Shown here one piece after another: positions 8,235-62,618 of a stretch of DNA of 64,000 nucleotides. Position 1 is the first letter of the stretch, and the number at the start of each line of letters is the position of its first letter. The notes under the pieces are model-generated. The model was given only the letters and a program-made list of their open reading frames with translations, did no database searches and was not told where the DNA came from. The translations under genes and the position numbers were made by a program. Origin of the DNA: Escherichia phage SP27; the sequence record LC494302.1, one strand, 5' to 3'.

Positions 8235-8433
8235 AGACGTTTCATTTTTACAGGCCGCTGGGGGGGGTCAAAAAAATTTCCGCTGAAAAACATGCTAAGG
8301 TATATGTTTAATATAAAGTTTTATATTGTGTTTTTCAGAGTACAGTTCATGTTTCCTGAAACAAAAAATACCCCGCCCCCGCAACGTGCTCCTTATATTG
8401 GAGTTTACCTTATTAATTATAGTAGAGATTAAG
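8235..8433. other. structured intergenic spacer with G-tract, C-tract and inverted repeat
   Basis: GCCGCTGGGGGGGG (~8262-8277), CCCCGCCCCCGC (~8377-8388); 10-bp inverted repeat CTGAAAAACA/TGTTTTTCAG. Confidence 0.5.
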
Positions 8434-8811
8434 ATGGAAATAAAATATAATGAATTTTGTGCAAGGACATGGATGTACACTGGTGAGTTAGTTACGCACT
8501 CTAACTTATACAAGGGTGATTTAAACTACGCTAGGGACAAGATTTTAAAGTACTGGAATGCTGACTTTTATTTGATGGATTTTAGTACTGGGTTTCATGG
8601 GATATCTATCGAGATGCCGGACTATACAGTACTTGATGATGCTGCACTGTTCCAGGAGGCATTAGTATTTGATAAGAAGTACATCTGTACATTAGAAGAG
8701 ATGATTGAATTACAGCGTAGAATTAAATGTATTCACAGGGAATGTATAGATATCTGGTGCAGTACTGGTGAGGCCGATTTCTGGAAATTTTTTAATCTAG
8801 GAGAAGAGTGA
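8434..8811 (+). CDS. FQxS-family member, tandem trio copy 1
   Basis: ATG 8434; motif MPDYTVLDDAALFQEALVFDKKYICT. Confidence 0.7.
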   Translation: MEIKYNEFCARTWMYTGELVTHSNLYKGDLNYARDKILKYWNADFYLMDFSTGFHGISIEMPDYTVLDDAALFQEALVFDKKYICTLEEMIELQRRIKCIHRECIDIWCSTGEADFWKFFNLGEE

Positions 8812-9167
8812 TGGAATTTGATTTTTTAATATCAGTACATACTTTCAAGCACAGTTATCAGTACTTTTGTAATTTAAACAAAGGTGATTTAATGCACAGT
8901 GCGAATGAGTATATTCATTACACTCAGGGTAAATTTACATTCATTGATTACAGTTCATTACAGTATCCACACCAAGATATGCCGGACTATACATTAATGG
9001 ATACCGCAGAACTATTCCAAGAATCATTAGTATTTGATAAGAAGTACTTGTGTACATTTGAAGAAGTTATTGCAATACAAAATGAAATGAAAGAGTATGC
9101 TGCTTTGCATAAACCCAATTCAAGTATTAATCAAGAATACAAATTCAATTTAGGAATTCAAGAATGA
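8808..9167 (+). CDS. FQxS-family member, tandem trio copy 2
   Basis: ATGA overlap; motif MPDYTLMDTAELFQESLVFDKKYLCT. Confidence 0.7.
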   Translation: MMEFDFLISVHTFKHSYQYFCNLNKGDLMHSANEYIHYTQGKFTFIDYSSLQYPHQDMPDYTLMDTAELFQESLVFDKKYLCTFEEVIAIQNEMKEYAALHKPNSSINQEYKFNLGIQE

Positions 9168-29345: not shown

Positions 29346-29353
29346 TGAAAATA

Positions 29354-29401
29354 ATGTGAACATATTAGATTCTTGTGATATAATGTTCACATCTTTTTTT
29401 T
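29354..29401 (+). terminator. intrinsic terminator whose loop embeds an extended -10 promoter
   Basis: perfect 10-bp arms ATGTGAACAT/ATGTTCACAT, 19-nt loop, T8; TG-n-TATAAT at 29376-29384. Confidence 0.65.
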
Positions 29402-30210: not shown

Positions 30211-31059
30211 ATGAAACTTTATCTAATCGTTGACTACAGTAAGGGTTATTATGACTACGCAGAAGAATCTGAAGGGTATTGCTCGTCTACTAATGTCAAT
30301 GTACGCACCAGTAGTACACATGAGCATGAATCTATTACAAACCTAAAAGATTTCATCGCATATCGAGCATTTGAAAAGAATTTCTGTCGTAGTAGATATT
30401 CGAAGTTTGAGTACCCGTTAATTGATGTTCCTGATGAATTGATGTTCCAGTTAATGCTCACTGGAGTACAAGATTATGATTACATCGCGTACAATCACAT
30501 TACTAAGAAAATTTATATCGGTACGTCAACACATGACATTTCTATGTATGCATCATGCCCCGATGATCGAATGAATGATAGAAAATCATACTATAGTGGT
30601 TCAGTTGGTTCAAATGATTCATTAAATGAAAATTTATTCTTTGAGTACGAGTTTGATAATCATCGAGGGAAAAAAGACCGAGAAGATTATTGTACTGAAA
30701 TTGATAGTACCAATGGATATGAAGAAGTGAAAGAAGCGATAATGCCATATATCCTTGACAAGTACTACAAAGATTTTCAGTACTGTAGTAATTTTCTAAT
30801 CCGAAATTCTATCATAATCGGTCGTCAAAGTACTGCATTCTCTAAGTACTACAATGATTCCCCTGTTGCTGAAAATGAAAACTGTAATATTCTCTCAATC
30901 CCACGTGAAGATATGGTATTCATGTTCACATCTTTCATTGAAGATGATGAGTTGTATGTAAAAAACAAGCACAGGTTCATGCCAAGTAAGATTGAGGTTA
31001 TGAGAAGCTTAAGTGCAGATATCTTAACTAATTTCACTGAAAAAACAGAATACAACTGA
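30211..31059 (+). CDS. hypothetical protein with internal FQ-type motif
   Basis: 282-aa ORF; motif PDELMFQLMLTG. Confidence 0.6.
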   Translation: MKLYLIVDYSKGYYDYAEESEGYCSSTNVNVRTSSTHEHESITNLKDFIAYRAFEKNFCRSRYSKFEYPLIDVPDELMFQLMLTGVQDYDYIAYNHITKKIYIGTSTHDISMYASCPDDRMNDRKSYYSGSVGSNDSLNENLFFEYEFDNHRGKKDREDYCTEIDSTNGYEEVKEAIMPYILDKYYKDFQYCSNFLIRNSIIIGRQSTAFSKYYNDSPVAENENCNILSIPREDMVFMFTSFIEDDELYVKNKHRFMPSKIEVMRSLSADILTNFTEKTEYN

Positions 31060-31089
31060 GACATACCATAAGTTTATGATATAATGTAA

Positions 31090-31122
31090 GGTGACAGCAG
31101 AATATGTTGTCGCCTTTTTTTT
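31090..31122 (+). terminator. intrinsic terminator
   Basis: 10-bp stem GGTGACAGCA/TGTTGTCGCC (2 G-U pairs), 5-nt loop, T8. Confidence 0.75.
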
Positions 31123-31659
31123 AATCCTGAAAGGTTCCATATGGAAATGATTAAAGCCTAATCCACTCGAAAAGTAGAGGGTAGATGAGTAGTCCTTTCA
31201 GTACGAACAGCAAATGAAACCCGTTAGATGATGGCATAGTTTGAACCACTCACGGCAATGCGGCTGTATAAAGAACTCCAATAGGATAAAGAGAGTTCCT
31301 CGATAGACATATAAGGATCGCACCTTACCAATTATCTAAGGGAGATTTCATGAGAAATTTGCGGTCGGAATTATACAATATAGTTGCGTCCAAATTTTGT
31401 GAAATCAAATACAAGTACTGGTCATATGGTATTTGTATTATGTGTCGGGATGTTTAAGACCGACGACCGTTGCTACAAGAACCGCGATAGAGAGAAACAG
31501 AGCAACCCGCTTTCGTCTCGTAAGAGAATTCGTGATATGAACTATGTGAAGGCCACCAGCGTCAAACTTTTTTGTTCTTTCCCCTGCGGGGGGATGAAAT
31601 ATGCTCAAGCAAACCCCGTCAATATTAATTAAAAGAAAATAGTACTTGTAGAATTAGAC
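31123..31659. other. ORF-poor, GC-richer island; candidate structured or non-coding RNA region
   Basis: about 530 nt with no convincing CDS in a genome otherwise near 95 percent coding. Confidence 0.4.
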
Positions 31660-36884: not shown

Positions 36885-37149
36885 AGTACTTATTGCTGAA
36901 ACAATGAAGATGATTTACAATATCACGTCAGCACAGAATATGCCCTATCCAACTAAGTCTTTATTGAGGACTGTGTATCTGGGGATAGTACAGGAGTACT
37001 ACAAATCCAAGCACCGAAGCATTATTAGTGTTTATCGTGATTATGAAAGGATTCGTATTTTATTCTGGAACAAGAATCGAGTACGTTCTGAATGTGACCT
37101 AGTGGACTTTAAATTAGAGAATCTTTATTGCTATAAACAGGGACAATAG
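36871..37149 (+). CDS. hypothetical protein
   Basis: ATG 36871 after AAGGA. Confidence 0.55.
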   Translation: MRTNEVLIAETMKMIYNITSAQNMPYPTKSLLRTVYLGIVQEYYKSKHRSIISVYRDYERIRILFWNKNRVRSECDLVDFKLENLYCYKQGQ

Positions 37150-37207
37150 TTTAATTCATGATATAATAATGGGTAAGGAACAATAATTAACACAAGGAGT
37201 GTGTGAA

Positions 37208-46437: not shown

Positions 46438-47181
46438 ATGAAACACTTCTTAGAAGTAACCGTACCTGATGATAAAGATTTATACATTGTAGGTGATTTG
46501 CATGGTAATGGTAAACTATGGGATGCTACAGTGAAAGAATTTGGTATTACACACAATGATTATGTTTTCAGTGTAGGTGATATTATCGACCGTGGAGAAC
46601 AAAATTCAAAGCTCCTTTTTGAATTTTTGTTCGGAGAAAATCGTTACATGATTGCGGGTAATCATGAGATGATGTGCGTTGATTCGGAAACACTTCGAGA
46701 TTGGTATCATTGTTGGATAAGTAATGGTGGTGATAAATTCCTTGATGAAGTTGGAGGAACAGGCATTCAATTCTTTCGTCAGTACTTAAAGGATCTCCCT
46801 ATGATTATCCAAATCAATCACCGAGGATTGAAGATTGGGTTAGTTCATGCTGGAGTTCCGTTGGAATATACAACATGGGAACGATTTGTTAATGGGACAA
46901 AATCACTTAGTGCTGATATAATTGATAAGTGCTTGTGGGATAGAAAAACATTCGATTATTGTAGAACTAATAATACATATTATGCACCTAAGTTAGATGG
47001 AGTGCATTGTGTCTTTAGTGGACATACAGCAGTTACAGACCCACTCATTTACGGTAATCGTATTTGGATTGATAGTCAGTTCTTGACGGGTGACTTAACT
47101 CTCGCTACTCCACAAAGTGGTGGGATGAGATACTTACGTAAAGAAAAAGATGAGTACTCATTCAATCGTTTCAAAAGGTAA
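46438..47181 (+). CDS. calcineurin-like metallophosphoesterase (Ser/Thr phosphatase-like)
   Basis: GDLHGN, GDIIDRG and GNHE motifs. Confidence 0.8.
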   Translation: MKHFLEVTVPDDKDLYIVGDLHGNGKLWDATVKEFGITHNDYVFSVGDIIDRGEQNSKLLFEFLFGENRYMIAGNHEMMCVDSETLRDWYHCWISNGGDKFLDEVGGTGIQFFRQYLKDLPMIIQINHRGLKIGLVHAGVPLEYTTWERFVNGTKSLSADIIDKCLWDRKTFDYCRTNNTYYAPKLDGVHCVFSGHTAVTDPLIYGNRIWIDSQFLTGDLTLATPQSGGMRYLRKEKDEYSFNRFKR

Positions 47182-51941: not shown

Positions 51942-52346
51942 ATGAATATACGTTCAGTACGAATATTTTCATTTGTTGATATGAATAAAAAACACTCTTA
52001 TGTTTTTGAAAATGTCAATAAGTTAAATCCTCATACGGCAAAAATGATTGAAACCATGAAGAACTTGAGTTTACATATAGAAGTTTACTATCTTCATGAC
52101 GATTCTGTTTATGTATATGATGATGGATGGTATGACGGTGTGTTTTATGATGACATTAGCACTACTGCTGATTACTACTTTCTAGTGAGTAATCCACTAT
52201 TCAGTACTAAAACTTTGTTTGACATTACCGATACAAGCGTGTATGATACAAGTCATGTTGAGTTACTTAAGTTTGATCCAGTATTATTCAACAAAGAGAC
52301 GGCGTATTGGATGACTGATTTCTTTTCAAATATTCCAGTAAAATAG
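51942..52346 (+). CDS. hypothetical protein
   Basis: ATG 51942 after GGAG. Confidence 0.55.
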   Translation: MNIRSVRIFSFVDMNKKHSYVFENVNKLNPHTAKMIETMKNLSLHIEVYYLHDDSVYVYDDGWYDGVFYDDISTTADYYFLVSNPLFSTKTLFDITDTSVYDTSHVELLKFDPVLFNKETAYWMTDFFSNIPVK

Positions 52347-52348
52347 TT

Positions 52349-52376
52349 TGGACATTTTAAATCTTAGTGATATAAT
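52349..52376 (+). promoter_or_regulatory. sigma70-like promoter with extended -10
   Basis: TGGACA, 16-nt spacer, TG-n-TATAAT (52368-52376); 35 nt upstream of ClpP-like start. Confidence 0.5.
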
Positions 52377-60137: not shown

Positions 60138-61577
60138 ATGAAAAAATATACAATTGACACAAACGTACTACTATCTGACCCTAATGCATCTATTGCTTTT
60201 GATGGTGCTACAATCATTCTACCATTTACAGTACTGGAAGAATTGGATTCAATTAAGAGTCGTAATGTAGATGTTTCACGCGATGCTCGTGTTGCTATTC
60301 GTAACATTGAAGCAATTATTGCAGATGCATCACATGATGAGATTAGTAGTACTGGTGTTAATATTGCTGATGTTCATACCAATATGAATCCTGATAGCAA
60401 ATTGTTTGTTATTACAAACGAAGAAGCTGAAGCACTAATTCGTACTAAAGGTTCAGAAGAGAAAGTTCAAACCCTTCTCAAAAGCACAGTACCTGATGAT
60501 AAAATCATTCTGGTAGCTTTAGCAACAGAATCAGTACTGGTAACTCGTGATATCAACATGCGTATCAAAGCACTAAGTTATGGTGTCGAGGTACAAGATT
60601 ATCGCCATGATATTGTTATTGGTGATAGTGATTTGATTCACATTGGTCAACACCATTTGGAAATTAATTTTTGGGAAGTATATAGCAACTTAACCAATAC
60701 TAATATTCAATCCGAACAAGTTGGTCGTCGTTTGTATCATTACATTTCTAAAAGCTTGATTGAACATTTGCTTCCACAAAATCTATGCATCGGTGATTAT
60801 CTATATGATGATGCAGACGTATTATTTGTGTACGAAGGTCAATCAGCAATTGAGGAAGATGATGGAACACTAACACCAGAAGATATTTTGGTATTCCAAG
60901 ATATTGGACAATCAGTAGCTTTACGTGCTAAAGTATGGGATATTAAAGCAAAGAATATCCAACAAGCACTCGCCATCAACAGTATTCTCGATCCTGATGT
61001 ACATCTAACAGTACTGCTAGGTTCTGCTGGTACTGGTAAAACACTAATTACGATTGCTACTGCATTAGAATTAGTACTGGAAAAACGTAAATACGACCGA
61101 ATCATCTTCTCTAAAACTCAAGACTCACAGTTTGAAGATATTGGTTTCTTGCCAGGTTCAGAAGCAGAAAAAGTGATTCCATTCTGTGGAGCCGCAATTG
61201 ACGCGTTAGAGTTTCTTCATAAAGATGATGCTAACCCACAAGGTAGTATTGAAGAGATTATGAAACGTAATGTTATTCAATTTAAAGCACTAAACTTTGT
61301 ACGTGGACGTTCATTCACCAACACTATTCTAGTAGTTGATGAATTCCAAAACATTACACCTGCACAAGCCAAAACAATCTTGACACGAGCAGGATTAAAC
61401 TGTAAAGTAGTAATTATGGGTAACTTGAGTCAGATTGACAGTAAGTTTATTAGTCCTGTTAACAGTGGTTTGACATATGTAACTGAGAAGTTTAAAGATT
61501 GGGCAGGTTGTCGTGTCATCGAACTAGAAGGTGTTGTTCGTTCACCACTTGCAGAATTTGCTGAAGAAAATATGTAA
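60138..61577 (+). CDS. phoH: PIN-domain PhoH-like ATPase
   Basis: N-terminal PIN-like YTIDTNVLL; Walker A GSAGTGKT; 479 aa. Confidence 0.85.
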   Translation: MKKYTIDTNVLLSDPNASIAFDGATIILPFTVLEELDSIKSRNVDVSRDARVAIRNIEAIIADASHDEISSTGVNIADVHTNMNPDSKLFVITNEEAEALIRTKGSEEKVQTLLKSTVPDDKIILVALATESVLVTRDINMRIKALSYGVEVQDYRHDIVIGDSDLIHIGQHHLEINFWEVYSNLTNTNIQSEQVGRRLYHYISKSLIEHLLPQNLCIGDYLYDDADVLFVYEGQSAIEEDDGTLTPEDILVFQDIGQSVALRAKVWDIKAKNIQQALAINSILDPDVHLTVLLGSAGTGKTLITIATALELVLEKRKYDRIIFSKTQDSQFEDIGFLPGSEAEKVIPFCGAAIDALEFLHKDDANPQGSIEEIMKRNVIQFKALNFVRGRSFTNTILVVDEFQNITPAQAKTILTRAGLNCKVVIMGNLSQIDSKFISPVNSGLTYVTEKFKDWAGCRVIELEGVVRSPLAEFAEENM

Positions 61578-61581
61578 TATT

Positions 61582-61614
61582 GTATGGGACATAATGTCCC
61601 ATACATGATATAAT
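61582..61614 (+). promoter_or_regulatory. 23-bp perfect palindrome abutting an extended -10 promoter (candidate operator)
   Basis: GTATGGGACAT-A-ATGTCCCATAC (61582-61604), then TG-n-TATAAT (61606-61614). Confidence 0.45.
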
Positions 61615-61645
61615 GTTGTTATCATAATACAGAAGGAGATATAAA

Positions 61646-61834
61646 ATGGCTAAACAACCTAAGAAAAAAGAACCAGTAGCAAAAGTTAAGAAAGAGAAAG
61701 TTATTCAATCTAAAGAACAACGTATGTACGAACAACGTAAGAGTGAAACCCTATCCGGTCTACAAGCTCTACGCAAACAAGGTGTACTAACTCGTGCACA
61801 GTACCGTGAACTAGTAGCTCAGAAAGGTTTTTGA
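61646..61834 (+). CDS. small basic protein
   Basis: 62 aa, Lys-rich N-terminus; RBS AAGGAG. Confidence 0.6.
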   Translation: MAKQPKKKEPVAKVKKEKVIQSKEQRMYEQRKSETLSGLQALRKQGVLTRAQYRELVAQKGF

Positions 61835-61948
61835 TTCATTTGAAGACATATTGTGGAGTTCTTAATAAATACTTTTATAAGAATAATAATACTTTTTATT
61901 AAATTAAAAAGAACTCCATGTGTTATTTCAGTTTTTCGTCCCTGTCTT

Positions 61949-61975
61949 TTGGCAGGGATTTTTTATATCTATATC
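61949..61975 (+). terminator. intrinsic terminator
   Basis: 8-bp stem TCCCTGTC/GGCAGGGA, loop TTTT, T6; preceded by a 10-bp inverted repeat with AT-rich loop (61864-61928). Confidence 0.7.
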
Positions 61976-62060
61976 TTGACAAAAGGAACAAATCATGAGA
62001 ACATGTATTAAAGGAAGAATGACTTTCCATTAGGTTATTTTAACTTAAAGGAGATTTCAT

Positions 62061-62618
62061 ATGTTTTTTGACCAAACATTTACGTTGTATCACGATTCTG
62101 GTAAAGTTGAGATTATTGATAATCTGTTAGAGTACATTGCGGAACATGACGGTATAGACCGTTTCCACAGTAAGATGAAATTCGATTTAGCTGAATTCAA
62201 CAAAAAGAATCGTGAAACATTTTGGAAGAACCGTTTCTATTACGAAATGTTTCCAGAAAAGTTTGTGGGTTATTATCTTTGTACTGAAAAAGGATTACTT
62301 GTATCTCCTGATTTACTTATGGGTGAATACATGATACTCTATAATGAGTACTGGGAACATAAACGTAAAGCTCGTGATACGGAATGGCGACATAAGCGTT
62401 CGTATATGTACAAACATAACCACTCCCGATACAAGCGTCCTAAGACTCAGCAAGAGCGTCGTATGGCTTGTGCAGTACTGAAGGATGAGGGGGAACCTGA
62501 TATACGTGGAAGACGTAAGATGCGTTCATTACCATCGTATTGGGACGATATCAGAACAAGACATAGTACTGGCTGGAAATACAGTACTAAACGTAAACAT
62601 CAATACAAAGGGAGCTAA
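62061..62618 (+). CDS. hypothetical protein with Arg/Lys-rich C-terminal half
   Basis: 185-aa ORF with RBS AAGGAGA. Confidence 0.6.
   Translation: MFFDQTFTLYHDSGKVEIIDNLLEYIAEHDGIDRFHSKMKFDLAEFNKKNRETFWKNRFYYEMFPEKFVGYYLCTEKGLLVSPDLLMGEYMILYNEYWEHKRKARDTEWRHKRSYMYKHNHSRYKRPKTQQERRMACAVLKDEGEPDIRGRRKMRSLPSYWDDIRTRHSTGWKYSTKRKHQYKGS

Follow-up and report, generated by a model that had tools for sequence, protein, structure and literature searches.

A promoter-embedded palindrome behind the PIN-PhoH gene of a Rak2-like jumbo coliphage, most likely a composite terminator/attenuator and promoter

Junctions at which a stem-loop and a promoter share the same DNA have been described in T4-type phages and in bacteria. 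In phages RB49/phi1, PST and nt-1 they are known as PeSLs (promoter-early stem-loops), in which a sigma-70-like promoter lies between the stop codon of the upstream gene and the Shine-Dalgarno sequence and ATG of the next one, with a stem-loop that usually covers the -10 or sits between it and the -35 (Arbiol et al. 2010, PMC2839356; Comeau et al. 2014, PMC4122927). The stem-loop has been proposed, and in one case shown, to stop transcription arriving from upstream. PeSLs accompany small genes of unknown function as well as indel and gene-swap junctions, and they form a highly repeated, sequence-conserved cassette that is concentrated in hyperplastic regions (PMC2839356, PMC4122927). In bacteria, promoter-coupled terminators have been reported in which the 3' end of one transcript lies at most 35 bp upstream of the 5' end of the next (modal distance about 10 bp) and release is assisted by the polymerase at the overlapping promoter (Fletcher et al. 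2026, bioRxiv 10.64898/2026.08.19.745784).

The DNA analysed here, hereafter the window, is a stretch of 64,000 nucleotides from Escherichia phage SP27 (LC494302.1). It is 99.5-99.9% identical to the Asteriusvirus jumbo coliphages phAPEC6, PBECO4, G17 and 121Q, which are Rak2-like phages with genomes of about 350 kb. Genome-wide counts were made on the joined 351,992-bp genome of the near-identical phage ECO103 4-12-1 (OR844650.1), called the 352-kb genome below. The features of the junction are as follows:

60138-61577, plus strand: PIN-PhoH gene (479 aa), the last gene of the upstream transcription unit, with its TAA stop codon at 61575-61577
61582-61604, plus strand: perfect palindrome, extended to 61581-61605 by one more T-A pair
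61586-61591, plus strand: -35 box GGGACA found by promoter scan, within the left arm of the hairpin and 17 nt before TATAAT
61606-61614, plus strand: extended -10 TGaTATAAT, one nt past the palindrome, doubling as the A/T-rich stretch 3' of the hairpin
61621, plus strand: predicted transcription start (A), 7 nt past the -10 hexamer, placed from the sequence and standard sigma-70 geometry
61633-61638, plus strand: Shine-Dalgarno sequence AAGGAG, 7 nt ahead of the ATG
61646-61834, plus strand: gene for a 62-aa Lys-rich protein, taken from the ORF list, the sole gene of a short transcription unit
61853-61921, plus strand: conserved long-range inverted repeat of 11 bp, GTGGAGTTCTT ... AAGAACTCCAT, in the 3' untranslated region of the small gene
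61938-61966, plus strand: canonical intrinsic terminator with a 9-bp stem and a T-run, annotated as a terminator in G17 and UE-S1
37137-37167, 46893-46922, 52346-52376 and 61586-61614: examples of promoters in the window

The product of the PIN-PhoH gene matches the Pfam families PhoH (7e-44) and PIN_4 (7e-20) and is annotated as PhoH-like in relatives; we take this fusion to be the domain pair of the mycobacterial PhoH2 RNA helicase/RNase proteins. The small gene follows in tandem on the same plus strand after a spacer of 68 nt. Its 62-aa product belongs to PHROG 24119 (unknown function), has homologues in these phages only and contains no Pfam domain above cut-off, a SHOCT-like match reaching 15.7 bits against a cut-off of 27. 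As the terminator at 61938-61966 comes after this gene, the promoter drives a short unit of a single gene. Between the stop codon of the small ORF and this terminator the GTGGAGTTCTT ... AAGAACTCCAT repeat flanks some 45 AT-rich nt and is kept in phage A4, and the segment 61832-61975 folds with -36.5 kcal/mol (z = -4.8). In A4, Turkey5 and several contigs an extra gene of 244-248 aa is found directly after the terminator (L006, 1666-2444), where the window has instead 52 nt (61967-62018) with a lone TTGACA.

The palindrome, GTATGGGACAT-A-ATGTCCCATAC, is a perfect repeat of 11+1+11 (23 bp) that starts about 3-4 nt past the PIN-PhoH stop codon and is the longest short-range inverted repeat of the whole window. 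Its RNA is predicted to fold, at -16.5 kcal/mol (z = -5.1), into a stem of 11 bp capped by a 3-nt loop. The window has two perfect inverted repeats whose arms are 11 nt or longer and include five or more G-C pairs; 100 dinucleotide shuffles gave 0.01 on average. When the G-C condition is dropped the shuffled windows contain 0.24 such repeats each, so the length of the arms is by itself unremarkable. The palindrome carries no annotation in phages G17 and UE-S1, and an Rfam search of 61300-62200 returned nothing near gathering score, the top match being freshwater-2 with 26 bits against 49.9. The first-pass annotation had placed a 23-bp perfect palindrome next to TGnTATAAT, ahead of a small Lys-rich protein gene, and this is indeed what the DNA contains. 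It had also set the palindrome where a -35 element would be; the location is right, but the palindrome does not replace the -35, since its left arm holds GGGACA at 61586-61591. A promoter on the minus strand at the palindrome was considered and rejected, as reading of the sequence gave no usable -10 at the correct distance.

GGGACA-17-TATAAT with its TG extension obtained a score of 10/12 in the promoter scan. The TG and TATAAT are invariant across all 11 aligned relatives, and a -35 box at the proper distance is kept in every one, phage A4 having a canonical TTGACA at the position aligned with GGGACA. In the 352-kb genome TGnTATAAT is present 77 times on the gene strand against 18 on the other, and two promoter classes can be distinguished. 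One is TTGACA-N16-18-TAnAAT, with 40 gene-strand sites that mostly lack the TGn; the other has (G/T)(G/A)GACA, mostly 16 nt before TGaTATAAT, with 25 sites (about 22 of them with TGn), and takes on the gene strand the form tGGGACAa/GAGACA-N16-TGaTATAAT. GGGACA or GAGACA combined with a -10 was found on the gene strand only, whereas the other strand has two TGGACA sites with a -10 but without TGn. The gene strand of the 352-kb genome has 13 sites, and the opposite strand none, at which GGGACA itself precedes TGnTATAAT by 16-17 nt, those near 37159 and 46914 of the window being of this type. Since GGGACA recurs as the -35 of a class, the left arm of the palindrome is the -35 box of that class. 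The extended -10 promoter that had been proposed is thus supported by the conservation of both elements in relatives and by its membership of a recurrent class. An RpoD-like sigma factor is encoded by the Asteriusvirus-type phages themselves (PMC11895373), and the GGGACA class may for this reason be read by that sigma.

Outside the window, about 650 nt devoid of ORFs lie downstream of one GGGACA-class promoter (L011, ~8380-9050, minus strand; genome ~143,350-144,010 in the orientation of the window). Part of this segment is conserved as DNA, unannotated and in 2-4 copies per genome, in GAP32, CBB and Yersinia and Erwinia jumbo phages. It has no Rfam match and is a candidate for a non-coding RNA family.

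The junction resembles a PeSL in that a sigma-70-like promoter, AAGGAG and the ATG are all accommodated within the 68 nt from stop codon to start codon, and in that a stable stem lies in the promoter, here over the -35 and the spacer and in sister lineages over the -10. As to gene shuffling, the observations are a replaced upstream gene in JNE01 and contig L129 and the A4 insertion past the next terminator, few cases with approximate end points. Unlike a PeSL, it occurs in a Rak2-like jumbo phage and not in a T4-type one, and here the promoter is repeated while the sequence of the hairpin is unique and the hairpin-in-promoter arrangement rare in the genome. A hairpin overlaps only a handful of the ~55-65 promoters of the 352-kb genome, and a comparison of folding energies gave no enrichment of overlapping hairpins at promoters, with 2 of 55 falling under the 5th percentile of the genome background.

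With the promoter-coupled terminators of bacteria the junction shares its position between tandem genes of the same strand, stem-loop DNA that provides the -35, and a TATAAT located 5 nt past the stem. The predicted 3' end about 8-10 bp before the predicted start also agrees, this geometry being derived here from the sequence alone. It differs from them by the absence of a T-tract, the space being held by the end of the right arm and ATGATATAAT, with 3 T in 8. The same holds for the comparison with the canonical terminators of the phage group (those of GAP32, CBB, fHe-Yen9-04 and Munch, and the one at 61938-61966), which likewise have a GC-containing hairpin of 9-12 bp soon after a gene-strand stop codon; unlike these, the studied hairpin has no T-run and overlaps a promoter.

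Perfect hairpins of 9 bp or more number 34 in the 352-kb genome, and 29 of them are intergenic. Most of the latter (23 of 29) start no more than 12 nt past a stop codon of the gene strand, the studied one at 3 nt. Nearly all other post-stop hairpins have a T-run in or after them, whereas the tail of the studied hairpin, ATGATATA, has 3 T among 8 nt. Among 70 hairpins that follow a stop codon, 5.2 would be expected to have a TAnAAT no more than 20 nt past the stem; 12 do, the excess peaking 10-14 nt after the stem (6 against 1.2), and clear cases of a terminator over a promoter, with the hairpin overlapping the -35, are located at genome positions 158043, 255334 and 340705.

Two more sites of the window can be mentioned here. 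An inverted repeat at 29352-29400 that is perfect over 10 nt, ATGTGAACAT ... (20 nt) ... ATGTTCACAT, reaches from the -35 to just past the -10 (TGATATAAT at 29376), is followed by T8 and has a large loop; it is a further candidate for a terminator over a promoter. At 31055-31135 a promoter, TGAGACA-N16-TGATATAAT, is followed after 5 nt by a strong terminator hairpin, GGTGACAGCAGAATATGTTGTCGCC with T9, and this unit would yield a very short transcript, possibly a small RNA.

Stems containing GTAC recur among the terminator hairpins, and AGTACT as such is about 9-fold over-represented: base composition predicts 21 copies for the window and 119 for the 352-kb genome, and the actual numbers are 192 and 919. 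The 8-mer CAGTACTG occurs 46 times (0.6 expected), for example at 8760, 13108, 13124, 29525, 61009 and 63475, and is missing from the first 8.7 kb of the window. AGTACT is not confined to ORFs, and within them it falls in each of the three codon phases, a pattern suggestive of selection at the level of DNA; the literature search found no paper on this over-representation.

Within the lineage of the window the centre of the palindrome varies (ATAAT, ATTAT, GTACT, AATAT, ATTC, ATTA) and the conserved portion is a 9-bp core, GTATGGGAC/GTCCCATAC, whose arms persist among close relatives with a gap of 5 or 4 nt between them. In contig L134 one G-C pair has become A-U by changes on both sides, and in several phages one A-U pair has become G.U, which would pair in plus-strand RNA only. 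Seven of the 11 stem pairs are invariant among the variants. Of all cells of the alignment 94% are paired, compared with 21-61% when the partners are slid; yet 63 of 500 column shuffles score as well, and the covariation alone is therefore not significant. The compensatory change together with the wobble is suggestive of maintained pairing. Moreover, the arms are conserved among the aligned relatives while the 5' leader diverges strongly, although the conservation of the left arm is partly accounted for by the -35 box alone.

Beyond this lineage a hairpin is kept at the PhoH junction while its sequence turns over. In Asteriusvirus-like genomes and contigs the spacer between PhoH and the small gene, of 66-82 nt, always has a promoter and a stable hairpin, and five hairpin solutions unrelated in sequence were found in it. 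The type present in the window covers the -35 and the spacer; in A4 and two NCBI assemblies TGTGTTCATTG-cta-TAATGAACACA covers the spacer and the -10; and in Turkey5 and contigs L123 and L125 GCGTCCAT-gctata-ATGGACGC encloses the -10. GGTACTG.. stems are found in contigs L126 and L127, where the -35 is part of the loop or adjacent to it, the hairpin of L126 being GGTACTGAACA ... TGTTCAGTAC with TTGACA in the loop and that of L127 a 16-bp stem across the -35 and the spacer. The sequence 3' of the stem is not U-rich in A4 and Turkey5. Throughout most of these lineages the small protein is 77-90% identical; those of A4 and Turkey5 are about 84-89% identical to the one of the window, A4 differing at 7 of 62 positions. 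New spacer variants were obtained by look-ups of the exact protein. An IMG/VR pattern scan with the 3' end of PhoH recovered phage 121Q only, plus 91 chance matches, and metagenome and viral scans with the small-protein alignment recovered near-identical loci only.

A GC-rich hairpin directly past the PhoH stop codon is also present in RaK2, Munch, fHe-Yen9-04, GAP32 and CBB, which belong to other genera, and in EJP2. A clear T-run follows it in Munch, fHe-Yen9-04, GAP32 and CBB, while EJP2 has a weak T-rich tail only (ATTCATTT). In RaK2 a 12-bp hairpin is followed by TTT and then by A-rich sequence, and the spacer of 135 nt also has a separate TTGACA-17-TATAAT promoter ahead of a homologue of the small gene. 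Serratia phage BF is an exception, with a 17-nt spacer and no hairpin. In JNE01 and contig L129 PhoH is replaced by a CapR-like gene, and no GC hairpin precedes the promoter and small gene; homology with the window starts exactly at TGATATAAT, which puts the junction at the -10 of the studied promoter, BLAST end points being approximate. The absence of the GC hairpin where PhoH has been replaced indicates that the hairpin travels with PhoH and not with the promoter or the small gene.

We hold with moderate confidence that the palindrome would act as a 3'-terminal RNA hairpin of the PIN-PhoH message and would terminate or attenuate read-through or at least block 3' exonucleases; that the hairpin forms in RNA and that read-through is reduced is what we infer from its sequence and setting. 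Placed right after the stop codon, where this genome puts its terminators, it would end or attenuate the PhoH transcript. The left arm would serve both as a strand of the hairpin and as the -35 box GGGACA of the next promoter, the right arm would occupy the promoter spacer, and the all-A/T extended -10 (AUGAUAUAAU in RNA) would stand at the place of a terminator's U-tract. Release, predicted about 7-9 nt past the stem, would then occur some 8 bp ahead of the predicted start at 61621. With a spacer of only 68 nt the DNA of the hairpin comes to lie on top of the promoter for the small gene, and the junction as a whole is most likely a composite of terminator/attenuator and promoter. The main weakness of reading the hairpin as a terminator is the missing T-tract: T makes up only 3 of the first 8 nt past the stem, so that efficient canonical intrinsic termination is not expected. 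The literature searched contains no transcript 3' or 5' ends for the Rak2-like phage group, the papers on CBB, RaK2 and Sharanji giving predicted promoters and terminators or none, and no transcript mapping.

It is tempting to suggest a terminator that dispenses with the T-tract by being embedded in a promoter, in which the -10 would replace the U-tract and promoter-bound RNA polymerase would act as a roadblock that aids release, but we regard this as possible and on the whole doubtful. Under such a mechanism, switching on the promoter of the small gene would at the same time insulate that gene from PhoH read-through, and the sister lineages would have arrived at it anew, using hairpins of their own on the -35 or the -10. 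A further step, which is less likely, is that the inverted copy of GGGACA also binds the reader of that box, for example the RpoD-like sigma of the phage.

The palindrome had been taken at first for an operator, at which a dimeric regulator of phage or host, perhaps the small Lys-rich protein, would bind the dyad and repress or activate the overlapping promoter. The perfect dyad symmetry across the -35 and the spacer speaks for it, and so does the conservation of the right arm in a spacer that is normally free of sequence constraint. The dyad does lie over the core promoter; conserved half-sites with a constant spacing, a cognate protein and further copies, however, were not found. The search for further copies that had been set as a check, copies which an operator need not have, gave none in the 352-kb near-identical genome: the closest other 23-mer differs at 6 positions, and the half-sites with one mismatch or none are seven scattered singles, never paired. 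With a centre of 5 nt in some close relatives and 4 nt in others, the two half-sites shift against one another. After PhoH, other genera have plain terminators, and A4 and Turkey5, with their closely similar small proteins, have unrelated palindromes elsewhere on the promoter. A small protein that is so conserved beside such different dyads is unlikely to be their reader, and its only hint of a known domain is the sub-threshold SHOCT-like match; that it regulates the promoter, as had been suggested, thus receives no support from a search that covered the 62-aa protein only and detected no DNA-binding domain. At a promoter 22 kb away, TGGGACAT-tat-ATGTTCCA, the only other GGGACAT..ATGTTCC arrangement of the genome, looked similar and was dismissed as a chance occurrence, being not conserved in WPEC5, A4 and Turkey5. 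We know of no fit of the palindrome to the sites of LexA, CRP, FNR, Fur, the Pho box, the sigma-54 -24/-12 elements or the T4 MotA box, nor to MerR-type spacer operators, which need a spacer of 19-20 bp, or the hairpin promoters of the N4 virion polymerase. Being unique, variable in spacing and replaced by unrelated hairpins in sister phages, the palindrome is quite unlikely to be an operator. A terminator palindrome can nevertheless double as a transcription-factor site, as described for LexA at the yobI terminator and ruvA promoter (bioRxiv 10.64898/2026.08.19.745784), and a dual role as RNA hairpin and protein site is therefore conceivable here and may exist. In both cases a palindrome at or over the -35 could be a stem-loop and a protein site; the present site departs from the yobI/ruvA case in having no predicted binding protein, in being unique and variable in spacing, and in being replaced in sister phages.

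The other explanations leave aside a regulator. The hairpin could be a stabiliser of the 3' end only, which does not stop RNA polymerase and protects the PhoH message from 3' exonucleases after Rho-dependent termination or processing, its overlap with the promoter following merely from the short spacer. A stable hairpin directly past the stop codon and without a T-tract is what such an element would look like, and the T-tract-free hairpins of A4 and Turkey5 fit it as well as or better than termination. However, distant relatives have complete T-run terminators at the PhoH junction, which suggests that the selected function is the ending of transcription, and release could be helped by the overlapping promoter and by the pure A/T sequence that follows the stem; we judge a stabiliser alone to be unlikely. 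An element acting in DNA, either a supercoiling-dependent cruciform that masks the -35 or a preferred recombination site for the exchange of modules, seems very improbable. It would agree with a perfect 23-bp palindrome in AT-rich DNA, with the gene-swap junction of JNE01 exactly at the 3' side of the palindrome, with the indel junction of A4 after the next terminator and with the proposal of PeSLs as recombination sites (PMC2839356). In relatives, however, the central part is not palindromic and just the 9-bp arms persist, with loops of 4-5 nt, which disfavours cruciform extrusion; the G.U-compatible change would pair in RNA only, and the swap is a single junction observation with approximate BLAST end points. 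There is, finally, the slight chance that the repeat has no current function and is a random or relic inverted repeat beside a promoter, given that about one shuffled window in four contains a repeat with 11-nt arms when composition is left free and that the covariation does not reach significance on its own. Against this, a GC-containing repeat of such length is expected 0.01 times per window, the arms are conserved next to a strongly divergent 5' leader, and analogous hairpins recur at the PhoH junction in other lineages.

A composite terminator/promoter junction is a known kind of element, and what is new is its example in the Rak2-like jumbo phages, unusual in having no T-tract. For annotation it serves as a warning that a dyad overlapping a promoter is not automatically an operator. 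The practical gain is modest and consists in better boundaries of transcription units in a phage group used for therapy research. If our interpretation is true, natural variants lacking a T-tract, some with the stem on the -35 and some with it on the -10, would be at hand in the group for testing how far promoter-bound polymerase and an A/T-rich -10 can stand in for the U-tract, and the Rak2-like jumbo phages would share with the T4-type phages, through their PeSLs, and with bacteria the space-saving placement of a terminator on a promoter.
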